Positions 41,556 to 48,829 of a stretch of DNA of 64,000 nt are shown piece by piece. The notes below the pieces were generated by a model. That model did not search any database. It saw nothing but the letters and a program-made list of their open reading frames with translations, and was not told where the DNA came from. Made by a program: the position numbers and the translations under genes. Source of the DNA: Candidatus Hydrogenedentota bacterium (GTDB lineage: Bacteria > Hydrogenedentota > Hydrogenedentia > Hydrogenedentales > SLHB01); NCBI GenBank assembly GCA_045863295.1, contig BTWA01000012.1, positions 86,633 through 150,632 on the forward strand, in the 5' to 3' direction. Numbering within the stretch: the first letter of the stretch is position 1; each line of letters begins with the position of its first letter.

Positions 41556-42230
41556 TCAGATCTCGCCAAATCCCTCGAACACCAGCCCGGCCTTGACCGT
41601 CACAGTGCCATCCGCACTCTTTCCCGAAAGCGATAAATATAACAACTTCCATTCATTTTCGCCGTCGCCGATCTGAGGCAAATCGCCCTGAACAGCCTCC
41701 GCCGGCTGCAAGCTCAATATGGCAGGATGGTGAGCCTTCCGATCTTCCATGCTCTTATCGACCATCTCGTCATGCGACGCGGAAAAATCAACTTCGGTAT
41801 CCAGGTCCGCCTTGACCAGCACTGCAAAAAACGGATGTGGAGCCACGCCCATGTGATCCCCATCTTGCGGTATTTTGCCCATTCGCAAGGTGTAAACGCC
41901 TTCATCGATCTCCACATCTTTGAAATCGCGTTGGCCTTTCCCCACCCGAGCTACGCCAATCAGCGTCAATTCCTTGACGTCATTCAGCGTGCCATCCTTC
42001 TTCCCGGCCGCCGTGACCACAGGAATGTCCTTGCGAAGCCAGAACTCCCATACCACACTGTTCTCGCTCTTAATCGTCATCACCTTTGATTCGAGGGTAG
42101 TCTTAATGGCATCGGTCACGTTCTCAGGAACCGCGGTCTCCTCGACAGACAGCTCAGCCGCCAGGGCGAAGGGTACGAAGGCTGCAAGCAGTATGGCCAG
42201 TATCCCGGTGAAAGGTGGTCGATAGTGCAT
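41556..42230 (-). CDS. Secreted hypothetical protein
   Basis: AAAGGA RBS and ATG 42230; signal peptide ending ALA-A; 'RDFK..GVYTLR..PQDGDHMG' and 'HHPAILSL' motifs; last gene of the molybdoenzyme cluster. Confidence 0.75.
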   Translation of the reverse strand: MHYRPPFTGILAILLAAFVPFALAAELSVEETAVPENVTDAIKTTLESKVMTIKSENSVVWEFWLRKDIPVVTAAGKKDGTLNDVKELTLIGVARVGKGQRDFKDVEIDEGVYTLRMGKIPQDGDHMGVAPHPFFAVLVKADLDTEVDFSASHDEMVDKSMEDRKAHHPAILSLQPAEAVQGDLPQIGDGENEWKLLYLSLSGKSADGTVTVKAGLVFEGFGEI

Positions 42231-42281: not shown

Positions 42282-42310
42282 AAAAAACACAGGCCGGAAA
42301 CCGGCCTGCG
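42282..42310 (-). terminator. Intrinsic terminator after the DUF1326-like gene
   Basis: Minus strand CGCAGGCCGG-TTT-CCGGCCTGTG followed by TTTTTT. Confidence 0.75.
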
Positions 42311-42335
42311 CGGTCTAACAATATATCCATATGGA

Positions 42336-43007
42336 CTAACTACCCAGCGAAAACCTCCCCAAAAAGGCACCGCGCTTGTCCGCATTCGTCCATTTCATGT
42401 CCAACCCGTCGCCCTGATAACTGGCCACATTCGTAAATACAGGCAACGCATTCTCAATTGCAGTAAGCGGGGGATAAAAGGCACTTTCGTTGCCGCAAAT
42501 ATGATCCCCGTTTCCCAAGCAGCGCGTTGATACTTCGACCAAGCCTTCTGCCTTGATCTCTGCGCACCCTTTCTTCTCGCAACAGGAATACGCCGCGCTG
42601 ATATCCGCGCTGGTAACGGATATGACATCCTTCACCAGATCGCCGCCCAAGGTCGTAGCCATGGCGGCCAGCGCCTCCTGCTGCGCCTCATTCGCCTTGG
42701 CGTCCGTGATCAATACCGCCTTGGCTGGCAACGCATTTGCATAAGTACTGCCAAGCGTATTGCTGGCCCGAACCACCGCAATGACAGTCAGTCCGTCCAG
42801 CTTTTCGCCGTTCCACGTACCTTGCGATACGGTCCACGACAGTATAGCCTCGGTTCCAGCCAATCCCACCTCACTGTTCGCATAGCAGGGACCTGTGAAT
42901 ACGTCACACGAACGGCTTTCCAGATACATGCCCTGTACCGAATTCCCGGCCAAGGCCACCGGCAACGCGGCCAGAAACGACAGTAAAACAACACTCATCA
43001 CACGCAT
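42336..43007 (-). CDS. Secreted DUF1326-like Cys-containing protein
   Basis: GGAGG RBS and ATG 43007; signal peptide; 'GMYLESRSCDVFTGPC', 'WTVSQG..GEKLDGL', 'DAKANEAQQEAL', 'HICGNE'. Confidence 0.75.
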   Translation of the reverse strand: MRVMSVVLLSFLAALPVALAGNSVQGMYLESRSCDVFTGPCYANSEVGLAGTEAILSWTVSQGTWNGEKLDGLTVIAVVRASNTLGSTYANALPAKAVLITDAKANEAQQEALAAMATTLGGDLVKDVISVTSADISAAYSCCEKKGCAEIKAEGLVEVSTRCLGNGDHICGNESAFYPPLTAIENALPVFTNVASYQGDGLDMKWTNADKRGAFLGRFSLGS

Positions 43008-43027
43008 ATACCAAACCTCCAATTCAT

Positions 43028-43061
43028 GGGCAGGGCTTTCCACACCAGAAAAGCCCTGCCC
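43028..43061 (-). other. Intercistronic stable hairpin without U-tract
   Basis: Perfect 12-bp stem GGGCAGGGCTTT/AAAGCCCTGCCC between the small Cys-rich gene and the DUF1326-like gene, just upstream of the latter's RBS. Confidence 0.6.
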
Positions 43062-43101
43062 GGTCAACAGGAAGCCCTTGCAGCATTCCTAAGCCTGACC
43101 G

Positions 43102-43299
43102 TCAATTGCAGAAACAAGTACGCCCCTGCGCGCATTCCGACTTGCCTACCGGATTCTTGTCCGGACCATACGATTGATGCGTCTTGGTGCACCAAAATGC
43201 GTCCGATGAGAATGCCTCTTCCTCATACCCGGTCTGGTAATACATTTCCTTCGATCGCAGGTATTTACAAGGTAGATTCAAGGAAAAGGGCTGTTCCAT
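43102..43299 (-). CDS. Small Cys-rich protein (65 aa, 5 Cys)
   Basis: Strong AAGGAG RBS; starts 19 bp after the FAD-subunit stop; 'CKYLRSK...FWCTKT...GPD...C...RTCFC'. Confidence 0.75.
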   Translation of the reverse strand: MEQPFSLNLPCKYLRSKEMYYQTGYEEEAFSSDAFWCTKTHQSYGPDKNPVGKSECAQGRTCFCN

Positions 43300-43318
43300 T
43301 CCGGATTCTCCTTCAGGC

Positions 43319-44272
43319 TCACGCCATAGCAGCGAGGATTGCCCGCTTCACAGAAACCTTTACAAGCTGCACTTTGTAACCGTTTTTACTCATCGGCTTT
43401 GCGCCTTCTGCTGCCGCCTCGCCACACGCCGCTGCGGTTTCTTCAGTAATGGCTTGACCTTCAAGCGCCTTGGCCGCCGCAATGGACACCCAAGGCACCG
43501 GGGCTACATGACCCAACACCACGGACACACCCGTCGCTCTTCCGCCGCTCTCTCCAAATGCCACGGCCGCCGCCGCATAAGGCCAATCCAGTATCTGCCG
43601 GTGCCGTACTTCATAGATGCCATTCCGGACTCCATTGAATGGAATCCGCACATGCGTCAGAATCTCGCCGGGCTGGAGCACGGTCTCCGAGTCGTCGTCA
43701 CTCGACGGAACCTTGAAGAACTCAGCCAACGGCACGTCACGAGTTCCATTCACAACGGCAACGGCGCCAAGGGCGGTTAATGCCGGCGCCAAACTCGACG
43801 GATGCACAAATTTAGCCGCACCCTCGTTCCCGAATATGGCGTGATACCGATTGTCGCCAGATTCTACAAGTGCCGAACCGCTCACGAGCCCAAGGCCATT
43901 CCGGTAGTACCAGCATCGAGGCCGCTGGCATAAGTCGCCTCCAACCGTTCCCACCGACATCAACTGAGGGGATGCAACGCCTTGCGCCGCTTTGACCAAT
44001 GCCGGGAAATGTTTCTGGACGGTCGCATTCGCCACGAATTCCGATAACGTGGTCATCGCGCCCACGGTCACCATCTCCGGCGCGGTGTCAATGCCTTTCA
44101 GTTCTTCCACGTTGCGAAGACTAACGACGCGCACAGGCGACACGATTCGTTGTTTTAGACTCGTGACCAAATCGGTTCCGCCAGCCATCACAACGGCAAG
44201 ACCATTCGTATTCTTTAAGAGGTCGGTCGCCTCGGCTGTAGTCGACGGAGCCGCATATTCGAAGGCGTTCAT
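43319..44272 (-). CDS. FAD-binding subunit, xanthine dehydrogenase/PaoB (YagS)-like
   Basis: 'MAGGTDL', 'VGAMTTL', 'ASPQL..VGTVGGDLCQRPRC', 'LGHVAPVP'. TGATG coupling with the Mo subunit. Confidence 0.92.
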   Translation of the reverse strand: MNAFEYAAPSTTAEATDLLKNTNGLAVVMAGGTDLVTSLKQRIVSPVRVVSLRNVEELKGIDTAPEMVTVGAMTTLSEFVANATVQKHFPALVKAAQGVASPQLMSVGTVGGDLCQRPRCWYYRNGLGLVSGSALVESGDNRYHAIFGNEGAAKFVHPSSLAPALTALGAVAVVNGTRDVPLAEFFKVPSSDDDSETVLQPGEILTHVRIPFNGVRNGIYEVRHRQILDWPYAAAAVAFGESGGRATGVSVVLGHVAPVPWVSIAAAKALEGQAITEETAAACGEAAAEGAKPMSKNGYKVQLVKVSVKRAILAAMA

Positions 44273-46407
44273 CAGGCTACCCCTCCTTGCGCCAGAGCGT
44301 TGAGGACCGCATCGGGAGTCATCGGCATCGTCGGCACACGTACCCCGATTGCATTGGCCACTGCATTCGATAGGGCCGCTCCAGGCGAAATGACTGGCGG
44401 TTCGCCCAGCCCTATCACGCCGCGGCTATCGTATTTCGGCCCCGTCATCATCTTTACCTTGAGTGTTCCGATATCCGGCAATCCCGCCAGACGGTAGAAT
44501 TCCATGTCCGCGTTGAGCATGCGGCCCGTAGCCGGGTCATACACGGATTCCTCAAACAGTGCGTACGTAATCCCCATGATCAAACCACCCAAAACCTGGC
44601 TCTCCGCAGTTTTCATACTGATGATCAATCCACAGTCCTGCACAGCCGCCATCTCATTTACGGTGACAACCCCCGTCTCCGTATCCACGGAAACATCGGC
44701 GATCTGCACACCGCCTACGCCGCTGTCGTCCAGTTTCGTACCGTCGGTCGCGGGCTTGCCGCCCCGGCCAGTCACGGGCATCTGACCAAGCAGCGCACAC
44801 GCCTTTTCCCACGGCAGCCATTTGGCCGAATCTGTCCTGCGCAATACCTTGCCATCCGTAGCGATCAGATCGTCTACGGTGCACTGCAGGGCCGGGGCGG
44901 CCTTTTCAAGCAACTTCACAAGCGCGTTGTTCGCCGCATCGCGCGCCGCCGTGCTCACCCCGCCTATGGTTGTGCTGCCGCCCGAGGCCGCACCTTCCGG
45001 ATACTTGTTGTTGCCAATGTTCACCTGTACCTTGTCCAGCGGTAACCCCAGCGTCTCTGCAACTACAATCCCAATGGCCGTGCGCGTGCCGGAACCAAGG
45101 TCCTGCGTACTCATATTCACCGCTGCCGATCCATCGGGATTAATGACCACGTCGCTCTGGCAGTTGTGTCCGCCACCGCCCCACGTATGGATCGAAATCC
45201 CAAGTCCGCGCTTGACCGGGCCGGGCGTCTTGTCGCCGCGCAAATGCGCCTTCTCTTTGTACCCGATCATTTCCGCCGCCAGATCGAGCTCTTCCGCATA
45301 CACCTCTGGCATCGAAGTCAAAGGCAAATTCTTCTTGAAGAATTCGAGCGCGTCCATGCCTATCGCCGCCGCCGCGTCTTCCAGTGCAGCCATCGTCACA
45401 AAACACTGCTGCGGATGATTCGGCGCACGCCACGCACGCCGGGATCCACGGTTCGTACGCACATTCTTGTCCACGCGGCGAAAGTTTGGAATCGCAAACA
45501 CGTACGGCAAGCGTGCCAACGCGCCGCCACCACCCATGCCGCCCGATCCCCACGACACCGAATCCCACACCTGAATGTCGCCCGCCTTGCTGACCCCCAC
45601 ACTGACCTTCGCAAACCCGGACGGCCTCATCCCAGCAACCATCAATTCCTGATCACGTTCGAGGAACAGTTTGAACGGTTTGCCCGTCTCTTTGGATATG
45701 CGCGTGGAAATCTGATCCCACTGATCAGGACCGAATTTGGACCCAAATCCACCTCCCATGTATTGGCAGTCCACGCTTATCTTGCTCGCCTCAAGCCCCG
45801 ACGTGTCGCTCAATTGGCCGCCATAGCCCGTCACATTCTGCGTCGATGGATAAGACTCAAGCCGGTCACCAAGAAAATGGACAGTCTGCCCGTGTGCCTC
45901 CATGCAACAATGCGTGATTACCGCGCATCCGTATTCACCTTTGACCATAACATCCGCACCCGAAAGCGCCGCCTCTACAGTGGCGTCATCCGGTTTCACG
46001 TCAGATTGGTCCCGGCCCTCGGCCTTGGTCGGGTCGTTGTCATCCATCTGAGGGGGCTTAACCTCGTATTCCACTTTGATCGCGTGGATGGCCTCAGTGG
46101 CAATCTCCTCGCGCTCCGCCGCCACCACAGCAATTAAGGTGCCCGCGAATAACACCTCTGTTCCCGGTTGAGCCTCCACGATCACCGATTTCACCCCGGC
46201 CATGCCTTCGGCCTCCGAAACATCGATGGATTTCACGACGGCATTGCCAAAAGGCGCCCACAGCACCCGCCCGAACAACATGTCCGGCAGGTTCTTGTCA
46301 TAGGCGTATTTCGCTGCACCCGTCGCTTTCACCGGCCCGTCGAGGCGATTCACCCGTGTGCCGATAATCCTTAATGGCTGGCTGGTTGCCCAGGGATTCC
46401 TGCTCAT
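44272..46407 (-). CDS. Molybdopterin-binding subunit, xanthine dehydrogenase/PaoC (YagR)-like
   Basis: 'RLDGPVKATGAAKY', 'MGGGFGSK', 'AWRAP', 'QDLGSG', 'ASGGS', catalytic Glu in 'GLGEPP'. ATGA overlap with the Fe-S subunit stop. Confidence 0.93.
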   Translation of the reverse strand: MSRNPWATSQPLRIIGTRVNRLDGPVKATGAAKYAYDKNLPDMLFGRVLWAPFGNAVVKSIDVSEAEGMAGVKSVIVEAQPGTEVLFAGTLIAVVAAEREEIATEAIHAIKVEYEVKPPQMDDNDPTKAEGRDQSDVKPDDATVEAALSGADVMVKGEYGCAVITHCCMEAHGQTVHFLGDRLESYPSTQNVTGYGGQLSDTSGLEASKISVDCQYMGGGFGSKFGPDQWDQISTRISKETGKPFKLFLERDQELMVAGMRPSGFAKVSVGVSKAGDIQVWDSVSWGSGGMGGGGALARLPYVFAIPNFRRVDKNVRTNRGSRRAWRAPNHPQQCFVTMAALEDAAAAIGMDALEFFKKNLPLTSMPEVYAEELDLAAEMIGYKEKAHLRGDKTPGPVKRGLGISIHTWGGGGHNCQSDVVINPDGSAAVNMSTQDLGSGTRTAIGIVVAETLGLPLDKVQVNIGNNKYPEGAASGGSTTIGGVSTAARDAANNALVKLLEKAAPALQCTVDDLIATDGKVLRRTDSAKWLPWEKACALLGQMPVTGRGGKPATDGTKLDDSGVGGVQIADVSVDTETGVVTVNEMAAVQDCGLIISMKTAESQVLGGLIMGITYALFEESVYDPATGRMLNADMEFYRLAGLPDIGTLKVKMMTGPKYDSRGVIGLGEPPVISPGAALSNAVANAIGVRVPTMPMTPDAVLNALAQGGVA

Positions 46408-47027
46408 TTCGCACCGCCTTTCGCAGCGTCCAAGACAGCCGCCGTGATGCCCGCATACGTCCCGCAACGGCACAAATTGCCGCCCAGTCCAGCCTTTATC
46501 TCCTCAATTGAGGGGTTCGCGTTCGCCTTTAACAATGAAGCGCATGCGACGACAAAACCCGGCGTACAAAATCCGCATTGCTGTGCGTCGTGCTCGACAA
46601 ACGCCTTTTGAATCGGATGCAGGTTGTCGGGACTGCCCAGCCCCTCAACCGTTGTGATCGAGTGGCCTTGCGCTTCGATCGCCAGCATCGAGCACGAATA
46701 AACGGGCTTGTCATCCAGTAGTACCGTACACGCCCCGCAAGTGCCCCGATCGCAGACGCGCTTCGCCCCCGTGATATCCAGGTGATTCCGTAACGCGTCG
46801 AGCAATGTCACGCGCGGCTCCACGTTAACCGTGTGCTCGCTGCCATTGATGGATAGGGTGATGGGTACCGCATCAGGACCGGCCAGACCGGACCCCGCCT
46901 CCGCAACTGCCACTTGCGAGGTCATCTCCTCAATCAGTGTCGTGGCGGCCGCGCCAACGCCCATGCTCTTCAGGAATCCCCGGCGTGAAAAATCCGGGGT
47001 CCCCTTTCGCGAGTCGTCACCAGGCAT
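46404..47027 (-). CDS. 2x[2Fe-2S] subunit with Tat signal, PaoA (YagT)-like
   Basis: AGGAG RBS; 'FSRRGFLK' Tat motif; 'CDRGTCGAC..C', 'QCGFCTPG', 'NLCRC'. Confidence 0.93.
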   Translation of the reverse strand: MPGDDSRKGTPDFSRRGFLKSMGVGAAATTLIEEMTSQVAVAEAGSGLAGPDAVPITLSINGSEHTVNVEPRVTLLDALRNHLDITGAKRVCDRGTCGACTVLLDDKPVYSCSMLAIEAQGHSITTVEGLGSPDNLHPIQKAFVEHDAQQCGFCTPGFVVACASLLKANANPSIEEIKAGLGGNLCRCGTYAGITAAVLDAAKGGAK

Positions 47028-47237
47028 AACTCGACTCCTCCTACGGTAAGCCCAGCCCAGGTGGGAGGGGGAGTTCACCGGGGATACCCGGGCGCGCCTT
47101 GCATTGCGCCCGGTCCCGCGGCACATTAAGTTCGTGCCAATCACCCTACCACTCAAGCGAAGCATCTGCAACCTGAAGCCCGCAACTTGCTCGATTCCGA
47201 TCCAAGCCATACAATGATGACCGAACAGGACGAAACC

Positions 47238-48242
47238 ATGTCTCAAACCAACCCACAGCACTTTCTCGAAATGGCCTTGGCGCATGCCGCCTCGGGCAAT
47301 CCGTGCGCATTGGCCGTTGTCGTGCGCGCCAGCGGGTCCACGCCGCAGAAACCCGGAGCCAAAGCCCTGTTCGAAAAAGCAGGCCCTATCCATGGCACGC
47401 TGGGCGGGGGGTGTCTCGAAGCGGAATCTCGACAGCGTGCCTTGGAAGCCATCGAAAAGGGGGGAGCCTTCGCGTTCGACCTCAATCTGGATGACGACTA
47501 CGGATGGGACGACGGACTAATATGCGGTGGCAAAGTCCGCGTTATGGTAATTTCCGACCTAAGTCAATGCGTGCAGGCATTTGAAGGGGCGCTTGCCTCA
47601 CTAAAGCGCCGTGAAACGGGCGCACTACAATACCGGCTGGCACCTACCGTTACGGTCGAATGGATTTCCTGCACAGCATCCAACCCTCAGGAGTGGCGTG
47701 AAATCGACGGTGGCGAAATCTTTTCCGAATTTCTCGCCCCACAGCCGTCGCTCCTGATCGCCGGAGGGGGGCATGTCGGTCAAGCTGTGGCACGGCTCGC
47801 CCACTGGGCCGGCTTTGACGTGACCGTCGTCGACGACCGGCCAGCATTCGCAGACCCGGCGCTCTATCCACAAGGCGTACATACCCGTTGCGGCGATATT
47901 CCCACCGAGGTAGCGCGATTTGCGAAAGATGAGAATACGTACATTGTTATTGTTACACGTGGACACAGGCACGATGGCGTCGTGCTCAAGGAATGCATTC
48001 ACGCTCCTGCCGCGTATTTGGGTATGATAGGAAGCAAGCGGAAAGTGCATATCATCCGAAAAGGCTTTATCGAAGAAGGGATCGCAGCGCCCGAAACCTT
48101 CGATCGCGTTCGGTCCCCAATGGGCTTGGACATCGGTTCCGTTACCGTCGAGGAAATCGCAGTCAGTATTGTGGCCGAATTGGTTGCCGTGCGTCGTGGC
48201 CGGCTTGGCTCGGTCCAACCGATGGCAGTATTTGCAAAATGA
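47238..48242 (+). CDS. xdhC: XdhC/CoxI-family Moco sulfuration/insertion chaperone
   Basis: 'GSTPQKPGAK', 'GTLGGGCLE', 'GLICGG', 'GGGHVG', 'TRGH..D', 'YLGMIGSKRK', 'PMGLDIG..EEIAVSI'. Confidence 0.9.
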   Translation: MSQTNPQHFLEMALAHAASGNPCALAVVVRASGSTPQKPGAKALFEKAGPIHGTLGGGCLEAESRQRALEAIEKGGAFAFDLNLDDDYGWDDGLICGGKVRVMVISDLSQCVQAFEGALASLKRRETGALQYRLAPTVTVEWISCTASNPQEWREIDGGEIFSEFLAPQPSLLIAGGGHVGQAVARLAHWAGFDVTVVDDRPAFADPALYPQGVHTRCGDIPTEVARFAKDENTYIVIVTRGHRHDGVVLKECIHAPAAYLGMIGSKRKVHIIRKGFIEEGIAAPETFDRVRSPMGLDIGSVTVEEIAVSIVAELVAVRRGRLGSVQPMAVFAK

Positions 48243-48829
48243 TATACGCGGTAGTGCTTGCGGCCGGCTTATCCCGCCGCATGGGCAGCCAGAAATTGCT
48301 GCTGCCCTACAACGGCCGGCCTCTGGTCATGCACATAGTCCAGCAACTCCAAAAATCCAAAATAGACGGAATCATCGTGGTGACCGGATACATGGCCAAC
48401 GAAATTATGCGGGTGTTGCCGCAATCGGCCTGCAAATTCGTGAACAACGAACATTACCAGGAAGGTATGCTGAGTTCTGTCCGCGCCGGGCTCCGCGCGG
48501 TTCCCCTGGAGGCCGAAGCGTTTATGGTGGTTCTCGGCGATCAACCGTCGCTTCGAACACCTGTGGTAAACCAACTGATCGACGGGTATCGCGCCACGTC
48601 AAAATCCATCGTGGTACCCGCTCACAGAAACGATACCGGACACCCCATCGTAATCTCCACATCGCACCGCGATGCAATCCTTACGGAATTCAACGAAACG
48701 GGTCTGCGCGGATTGATCTACGGCAATCCGGATCAGGTATACAGACTCCCTGTCGAAGATGAAGGCGTGCTGCGAGATATGGACACACCTGAGGACTACC
48801 GGCGTGAGCTTGCAGCACTCAGCCTCTAG
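48239..48829 (+). CDS. mocA: Molybdenum cofactor cytidylyltransferase (MocA-like)
   Basis: 'VVLAAGLSRRMGSQKLLL', 'EGMLSS', 'LGDQP', 'GHP', 'DMDTPEDY'. ATGA overlap with xdhC. Confidence 0.85.
   Translation: MIYAVVLAAGLSRRMGSQKLLLPYNGRPLVMHIVQQLQKSKIDGIIVVTGYMANEIMRVLPQSACKFVNNEHYQEGMLSSVRAGLRAVPLEAEAFMVVLGDQPSLRTPVVNQLIDGYRATSKSIVVPAHRNDTGHPIVISTSHRDAILTEFNETGLRGLIYGNPDQVYRLPVEDEGVLRDMDTPEDYRRELAALSL

Follow-up and report, generated by a model that had tools for sequence, protein, structure and literature searches.

A conserved four-cysteine protein encoded behind the flavin subunit of a Tat-exported xanthine-oxidase-family oxidoreductase

Xanthine oxidase family members are textbook three-module systems, built around a molybdenum cofactor (Moco), two [2Fe-2S] clusters and a flavin adenine dinucleotide (FAD). 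Here we describe a small gene that is conserved in fourth place in the operon of one such oxidoreductase type, a type exported by the twin-arginine translocation (Tat) pathway and encoded in the order FeS(Tat)-Moco-FAD-small, where FeS denotes the iron-sulfur subunit. The gene was studied in a 64,000-nucleotide stretch of DNA from a Candidatus Hydrogenedentota bacterium (contig BTWA01000012.1; hereafter the window, whose own numbering we use throughout). The FAD subunit of the window lacks three of the four cysteines found in the corresponding insert of its solved relatives, and this loss is a separate, later event common to one large group of orthologues. The four-gene core and the FAD-subunit insert lie as follows:

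46404..47027, minus strand: FeS ([2Fe-2S]) subunit with Tat signal (Pfam Fer2, Fer2_2 and TAT_signal); start at the ATG at 47027, preceded by AGGAGGAG, from a reading of the start codon and ribosome-binding site
44272..46407, minus strand: Moco subunit (Pfam Ald_Xan_dh_C, MoCoBD_1 and MoCoBD_2); likely start at the ATG at 46407, an internal methionine of the translated open reading frame (ORF) that overlaps the FeS stop (ATGA)
43319..44272, minus strand: FAD subunit of the xanthine oxidase family, 317 amino acids, with a PaoB/HcrB-type insert (PF00941, PF03450; 5y6q_B)
43795..43933, minus strand: insert of the FAD subunit, residues ~114-160, with cysteine at one of four ligand columns (alignments to solved chains)
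43102..43299, minus strand: small protein of 65 amino acids with four invariant cysteines (homologue family, alignment and dN/dS, the ratio of nonsynonymous to synonymous substitution rates)

A fourth gene behind the FAD-subunit gene

The small ORF begins 19 nucleotides past the FAD-subunit stop, with an AGGAG site 8-12 nucleotides before its ATG, and encodes 65 residues of which five are cysteines (C11, C37, C56, C62 and C64). Its N-terminus is neither hydrophobic nor of the twin-arginine kind, and no signal peptide is seen. An earlier prediction made on this DNA (hereafter the original prediction) had described the gene as carrying a ribosome-binding site and five cysteines and no signal peptide; the AGGAG site and the translation agree with that description, with the refinement that four of the cysteines are conserved and C64 is not. 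A word-index homologue search with the single small protein recovered itself alone; an exhaustive, profile-free search of representative proteins gave 122 matches at E<=1e-3, almost all of ~60-110 amino acids with about 70 being typical. Across 83 aligned sequences the residues C11, C37, G45, D47, C56, R60 and C62 do not vary, while K17, T40 and P46—the last between the invariant glycine and aspartate—are at least 90% conserved, giving the family motif C-[RK]-x-L-R-x-K-x-M ... W-C-x2-T-x4-G-P-D-x8-C-x3-R-x-C. As defined by alignment A1, the family has this motif in proteins of ~65-110 amino acids encoded behind an FAD-subunit gene; none of the invariant residues is missing from the window protein, and its gene keeps the conserved position. 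The median dN/dS is 0.11, and all 22 locus pairs compared fall below 0.5 (Nei-Gojobori method on the conserved core; pairs of equal core length and 75-99% DNA identity). Because of the 122 homologues, the position kept in five phyla and the low dN/dS of all 22 pairs, the small ORF is beyond chance, and the small gene stands as a genuine protein, as had been proposed.

No Pfam-A or NCBIfam family matches the small protein at E<=0.01, source annotations of family members read only "hypothetical protein", and in the ESM-Atlas its neighbours belong to clusters without a name, from Acidobacteriota and Planctomycetota. An AlphaFold2 model reaches a mean predicted local distance difference test score (pLDDT) of 73; Foldseek found nothing for it in the PDB at E<=0.001 and VIA wide no chain at Z>=2, which does not by itself establish a different fold. 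The invariant cysteines are spaced C-x25-C-x18-C-x5-C, and four of them make a metal site plausible. Rubredoxins and zinc-ribbon mini-proteins are of like size and likewise have four cysteines as their sole invariant potential ligands, but they hold them in two CxxC (or CxxxxC) knuckles as opposed to the x25, x18, x5 spacing found here, and neither Pfam nor structure searches matched them to the family. Several long matches were set aside: P0004, P0023 and P0117 are unrelated repeat proteins; P0133 (374 amino acids, annotated as an FAD-binding subunit, in the cluster of P0082), a candidate fusion of FAD subunit and small protein, is a frame-shifted gene call that passes out of the FAD gene into the small gene's reading frame; and long open frames among the Planctomycetota matches are stop-free overlaps in GC-rich DNA.

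In at least five phyla, among them Myxococcota through a metagenome-assembled genome (MAG) of the Haliangiales, the small gene comes immediately behind the FAD gene of FeS-Moco-FAD operons that bear a Tat signal. The loci examined in each phylum were the 28-30 best-scoring ones and not a random sample. Among Hydrogenedentota, 33 of 135 genomes carry the gene; in loci from genomes other than that of the window, the FAD gene is directly upstream in 28 of 29 (the 29th is cut by a contig end), and a gene for a DUF1326 protein follows directly in 27. A profile search of Planctomycetota found the gene in 88 of 301 genomes, in single copy, with one genome giving two matches; the arrangement Moco-FAD-small was present in all 29 best-scoring loci, including those whose FAD subunit shares no more than 33-40% identity with that of the window. 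The same search of Acidobacteriota found one copy in each of 69 genomes out of 301 and the same arrangement in 28 of 28 loci, one further locus having been left out as its genome is flagged unpublished. A scan of GTDB representative genomes, which used a six-sequence alignment (A3) and samples the [LM]RSKEM[YF]Y subgroup only, returned 28 loci, which come from Hydrogenedentota, Verrucomicrobiota, Planctomycetota, Acidobacteriota and Haliangiales and from a single bin with the label Nitrospiraceae, with FeS-Moco-FAD-small order in 26; the closest named relatives were MAGs labelled Candidatus Hydrogenedentota. Behind the small gene the content varies: in Planctomycetota, downstream ORFs scanned against Pfam gave a DUF1326 match at E<=1e-5 in 8 of 29 loci and unrelated genes in the others. 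The constant core is therefore FeS, Moco, FAD and small.

Not every related operon has the gene. In nine Planctomycetota genomes a high-scoring FAD match occurs with no small-gene match (two listings compared by eye), and a search of these nine operons with the hidden Markov model of the small-gene family, filters off, did not find it. An orphan copy in Hydrogenedentota genome G017 (L016 7974-8261) has K17 replaced by R and "EM" by "ET" and lies in what appears by eye to be a rapZ/hprK/hpf-like housekeeping neighbourhood.

The export signal of the enzyme is on its FeS subunit, which scores 22.9 bits with PF10518 (TAT_signal; cut-off 22.7). The twin-arginine (RR) motif is invariant among the 24 FeS orthologues aligned and occurs in all 14 FeS N-termini found among 18 further upstream stretches. 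The Tat signal does not tell operons that have the small gene from those that lack it, both kinds carrying it: where an FeS N-terminus was found in operons lacking the gene, RR was present in 5 of 5.

The cysteine-poor insert and its history

The FAD subunit matches PF00941 (E 3.4e-36) and then PF03450 (E 4.6e-11), both over the Pfam cut-off, and this succession of FAD_binding_5 and CO_deh_flav_C places it in the CoxM / XdhB / PaoB class of the xanthine oxidase family. After the GGxL motif it has an extra insert that aligns with the inserts of 5y6q_B, 5g5g_B (PaoB) and 1rm6_B (HcrB); alignments of CoxM-type chains to it split into two pieces around the insert. Each of the three solved chains has four cysteines in the insert (HMMER alignments), and these reportedly ligate a [4Fe-4S] cluster. 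The window protein has cysteine at the first column only (RC, C120), and the remaining three are substituted, so that its ligand columns read "CVAA" in a multiple alignment. The insert peptide quoted in the original prediction, LCQRPRCWYYRNGLGLVSGSALVESGDNRYHAIFGNEGAAKFVHPS, occurs verbatim in the 317-residue ORF at 43319..44272 on the minus strand, and the accompanying claim, a PaoB/HcrB-type insert in which only the first cysteine (RC) is left, is confirmed by the alignments to the three solved chains; a second cysteine in that peptide, C115 ("LCQ"), is off the ligand columns.

The insert is strongly conserved in the cysteine-poor lineage, with the signature G-[DE]-N-[RK]-Y-H-A-I-F-G. Judged from the sequences, this lineage, which spans at least five phyla, has kept the insert and is without cluster binding by the canonical cysteines. 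Three Hydrogenedentota loci (L018, L019 and L021) have the first cysteine replaced by aspartate as well ("LPRDWYF"), and zero canonical ligands remain. A three-cysteine variant with serine at the fourth ligand position ("GGGPS[YF]IVHPS") is present in L087, L091, L092, L108, L164, L169-L171 and L117, eight of these FAD subunits being encoded with the small gene and one without; its cluster may be serine-ligated or lost.

The original prediction proposed that the small protein may supply in trans a metal centre for the one that the FAD subunit has lost. The idea draws on the adjacency of a cysteine-poor FAD subunit and the small gene in the window and on the four invariant cysteines, which could hold a cluster; moreover, within the group ordered FeS-Moco-FAD, each cysteine-poor FAD subunit seen has the small gene adjacent or, in the Limisphaerales MAG G139, elsewhere in the genome. 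The wider comparison speaks against it. Of 29 Planctomycetota FAD subunits beside the small gene, 18 have four cysteines, 4 have three (the fourth being serine) and 7 the first only; for the 28 Acidobacteriota loci the numbers are 4 with four, 4 with three and 20 cysteine-poor, and every locus in Hydrogenedentota, Verrucomicrobiota and Haliangiales is cysteine-poor. Altogether, the 105 distinct FAD sequences beside the small gene comprise 22 with four cysteines, 8 with three and 75 with one or none. The small proteins beside cysteine-poor and four-cysteine subunits share the same invariant residues. Conversely, the FAD subunit has four cysteines in eight of the nine Planctomycetota operons without the small gene and three in the ninth, and among paralogous operons without it seven are HcrB-like with four cysteines, one is PaoABC-ordered with four and two (L128 and L129) are PaoABC-ordered and cysteine-free. 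These last two, from Planctomycetota genomes G312 and G346, read FeS-FAD-Moco and then XdhC, and their insert, with none of the four cysteines, is of quite different sequence. Thus, all four combinations of small gene, present or absent, and cysteine state occur.

By placing the cysteine states on a tree of the FAD subunit we find that two changes suffice. The maximum-likelihood tree (125 distinct sequences, insert columns removed, rooted on HcrB-like paralogues) came from a quick IQ-TREE search with support from the Shimodaira-Hasegawa-like approximate likelihood ratio test (SH-aLRT) only; identical sequences entered only once, and neither L044 (because of an X in it) nor L176 (unpublished) was included. 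The 75 cysteine-poor sequences that have the small gene stand with the G139 subunit L110 on one side of a branch (SH-aLRT 93; 76 rows). In an earlier tree of 97 sequences, likewise from a quick search, this group is nested among four-cysteine subunits that have the small gene, and its sister is L090, a four-cysteine subunit with small gene, DUF1326 and p244, a further downstream gene described below (SH-aLRT 92). The second cysteine loss, that of L128 and L129, took place in a lineage without the small gene. The position of the cysteine-poor group inside a lineage that already had the small gene means that the gene is older than the cysteine loss and does not track it. The independent contrasts number only two, and the small gene changes in the predicted direction in neither. 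The gene also accompanies FAD subunits with four cysteines, an outcome that the original prediction itself had named as a refutation. The proposed fourth subunit supplying a metal centre thus survives as a genuine protein that is tightly and specifically linked to the FAD gene, and fails as a replacement for the lost cluster.

Neighbouring genes and known relatives

Two genes for secreted proteins lie downstream of the four-gene core and two genes for Moco-related proteins diverge from it upstream:

43028..43061, minus strand: GC-rich hairpin of 14 base pairs within the spacer that follows the small gene and precedes the DUF1326 gene (RNA fold)
42336..43007, minus strand: DUF1326 protein, secreted (PF07040 at E 5e-10); likely start "MRVMSVV" at 43007, with GGAGG ahead of it and a hydrophobic N-terminus of the Sec type after it
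41556..42230, minus strand: p244, a secreted, beta-rich protein of unassigned family (alignment A6, AlphaFold2 model)
47187..48242, plus strand: XdhC-family Moco-insertion chaperone, divergent from the operon (PF02625, PF13478)
48239..48829, plus strand: MobA/MocA-like nucleotidyltransferase (PF12804 at E 1.7e-39, the match starting at residue 86 of a long ORF)

In the cysteine-poor lineage DUF1326 and p244, both secreted, usually stand behind the small gene. p244 has a conserved Q-P-x-D-G-[DN]-H-x-G motif (P-x2-G-x-H-x-G being invariant), an H-P pair and conserved tryptophan, aspartate and arginine (alignment A6); it has no Pfam or NCBIfam match, and its confident AlphaFold2 model (pLDDT 87.6) gave no clear fold match in the PDB, the best VIA hit having Z 3.9. 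The hairpin lies within a 94-nucleotide spacer, and the 116 nucleotides at 42995-43110 (minus strand) around it fold at -47.7 kcal/mol (z -3.26), with 0 of 200 shuffles as stable. There is no U-tract after the stem, hence it is not a classic terminator; the hairpin may act as a divider that keeps the four-gene core apart from the two genes downstream. Past the DUF1326 stop and ahead of the p244 start comes a terminator-like stem at 42287-42311 on the minus strand (11 pairs, 8 of them GC, then TTTTTT), and p244 may be transcribed by read-through or independently. In MAG G139 the cysteine-poor FeS-Moco-FAD operon (L110) stands alone and the small-DUF1326-p244 unit (L054/L075) is beside a pyruvate-kinase-like gene. 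On the other strand, the MobA/MocA-like gene likely starts over the XdhC stop, a start position read from the translation. The ATGA overlaps at 48239-48242 (XdhC stop and likely MobA/MocA-like start) and at 46404-46407 (FeS stop and Moco start) suggest translational coupling in both units.

The row of Tat-FeS, Moco and FAD genes together with XdhC and MobA/MocA-like genes makes the enzyme resemble PaoABC, a periplasmic aldehyde oxidoreductase with a similar gene set (PMC3958847). The Escherichia coli enzyme (PDB 5G5G) shares the three-subunit xanthine-oxidase-family make-up, the Tat signal on the [2Fe-2S] subunit, the insert in the FAD subunit, and an XdhC-type chaperone and a MocA-like gene nearby (PMC3958847). 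As in that enzyme, the Tat signal of the window operon is on the FeS subunit and the other subunits have no signals. The two differ in gene order—FeS-Moco-FAD in the window as opposed to FeS-FAD-Moco in PaoABC, an order that recurs in loci L128-L130—in the insert, where PaoB has four cysteines and the window subunit is without three of them, and in the extra conserved small gene that stands beside the PaoABC-like set in the window; paoABCD is not known to include a small gene of this kind. The NCBIfam equivalog cut-offs are far from reached (PaoA NF008514, 187.3 against 322 bits; PaoC NF041671, 264.9 against 1180 bits), so the window enzyme is not a PaoABC equivalog; the PaoC and XdhA models of NCBIfam both match the Moco subunit under their cut-offs.

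The best solved relative of the FAD subunit is the medium subunit of the Methylobacillus aldehyde oxidase (5Y6Q chain B; E 1.5e-41 over residues 1-315), which has the insert in the same place, with four cysteines as compared with one in the window protein. HcrB of 4-hydroxybenzoyl-CoA reductase (1RM6 chain B) is likewise an FAD subunit with a cysteine-bearing insert but is more distant (E 2.7e-27; TIGR03195 at 145 bits against a cut-off of 404.55). The HcrB enzyme is a cytoplasmic reductase in which electron flow is reversed. HcrB-like paralogues with a longer insert occur in Planctomycetota (L123-L127, L131 and L132), and none of these seven loci has the small gene.

Proposed role of the small protein

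We give equal weight to belief and doubt in the proposal that the small protein is a metal-binding accessory component of the oxidoreductase, most probably a small subunit that attaches to the complex, once folded, in the cytoplasm and leaves together with it; its metal binding, localisation and interaction are all read from comparative evidence. On this proposal its four cysteines would bind one metal ion or cluster, and the protein would act on the enzyme or together with it, in the likeliest case as an accessory subunit present in stoichiometric amount. It would join the cofactor-loaded complex in the cytoplasm, be carried out with it through the Tat signal of the FeS subunit—the hitch-hiking that the original prediction had suggested, and the way in which E. 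coli PaoB and PaoC are presumably exported along with their complex—and sit near the FAD end of the electron path. The retention of the small gene long after the loss of the FAD-subunit ligands speaks against a protein that serves only to insert or replace that cluster.

Several observations weigh against this proposal. The nine related Planctomycetota FeS-Moco-FAD operons without the small gene, Tat-signal-bearing where this could be seen, imply that it is dispensable for some close relatives. In G139 the small-DUF1326-p244 unit is ~215 kb from the FAD gene on the same contig, and Hydrogenedentota genome G017 (96% complete) has a diverged small gene and no FAD orthologue at E<=1e-10. The cysteine spacing has no CxxC knuckle and no known metal-binding family or fold was matched, so that metal binding is suggested by the invariance of the cysteines and by nothing else, and we likewise infer the placement of the protein in the complex or in the periplasm. 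Among 7446 longer candidates, no fused FAD-small protein was found at E<=1e-5 (alignment A1), which is weak evidence. A complex prediction of FeS, FAD and small protein (alignments A5, A4 and A1) scored 0.00 in both runs and, being without controls, is no evidence either way.

It is rather unlikely, if a serious competitor, that the small protein instead helps to mature or proofread the enzyme in the cytoplasm; with a Zn or Fe site of structural purpose, it would bind the unfinished enzyme or its Tat signal until cofactor loading is complete and stay behind when the enzyme is exported. Small cysteine-rich or signal-binding helpers without a signal peptide, of the FdhE, NapD and TorD/DmsD class, are encoded with Tat-exported molybdenum enzymes, and they may offer a functional analogy. 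Such a factor would fit the lack of a visible signal peptide on the small protein, the Tat signal on the FeS subunit in every operon seen with the gene, and an enzyme that needs complex cytoplasmic assembly and has XdhC and MocA-like genes adjoining; a general assembly factor would also be expected to outlast the cysteine loss of the FAD subunit, as the small gene does. However, related operons whose FeS subunit bears a Tat signal (RR in 5 of 5) do without the gene, its sole co-encoded partners in one genome are two secreted proteins, and no helper family in Pfam or NCBIfam resembles its product. The parallel with FdhE, NapD and TorD is a possible one, and no similarity of sequence or fold to these helpers was found in the libraries searched; FdhE has four CxxC pairs, as against none in the small-protein family.

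We think it improbable that the small protein is a redox-active subunit of a new kind, whose dispersed cysteines would hold an Fe(Cys)4 centre or a small Fe-S one and which would form the electron exit beside the FAD in these periplasmic molybdoenzymes. Its pre-existing presence would then have let one lineage drop the [4Fe-4S] cluster of the FAD subunit and rewire the output, possibly to DUF1326 and p244.

That the small protein is a partner of DUF1326 and p244 and not of the oxidoreductase seems very improbable. DUF1326 comes next in 27 of 29 Hydrogenedentota loci, and the three genes form a unit of their own in G139, 215 kb from the oxidoreductase genes, but among the downstream ORFs scanned the DUF1326 match is confined to 8 of the 29 Planctomycetota loci, both proteins are missing from several Acidobacteriota loci, the small gene and DUF1326 of the window stand on either side of a strong hairpin, and DUF1326 and p244 have Sec-type N-termini that the small protein does not. 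The slenderest chance of all goes to replacement in trans of the lost [4Fe-4S] centre, given the 22 distinct four-cysteine FAD subunits with the small gene behind them, the single cysteine loss inside an already gene-bearing group, the loss of all four cysteines without the gene in L128 and L129 and the two contrasts, neither in the predicted direction.

Among the papers found on PaoABC/PaoB, [4Fe-4S] clusters, the xanthine oxidase family and molybdenum hydroxylases, none described such a small subunit, judged by titles and the starts of abstracts. The comparative data bring to light an unnamed four-cysteine protein in roughly a quarter of the sampled Planctomycetota, Acidobacteriota and Hydrogenedentota genomes, and they run contrary to the otherwise attractive account of replacement in trans. 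To our knowledge, the physiological electron acceptor of periplasmic enzymes of the PaoABC type is still unclear. The small protein is a candidate for a missing subunit, an electron-exit module or an assembly factor of a common environmental molybdoenzyme, and the cysteine-poor lineage, which has kept its insert across phyla, is a natural experiment on the purpose of the cluster in the FAD subunit.

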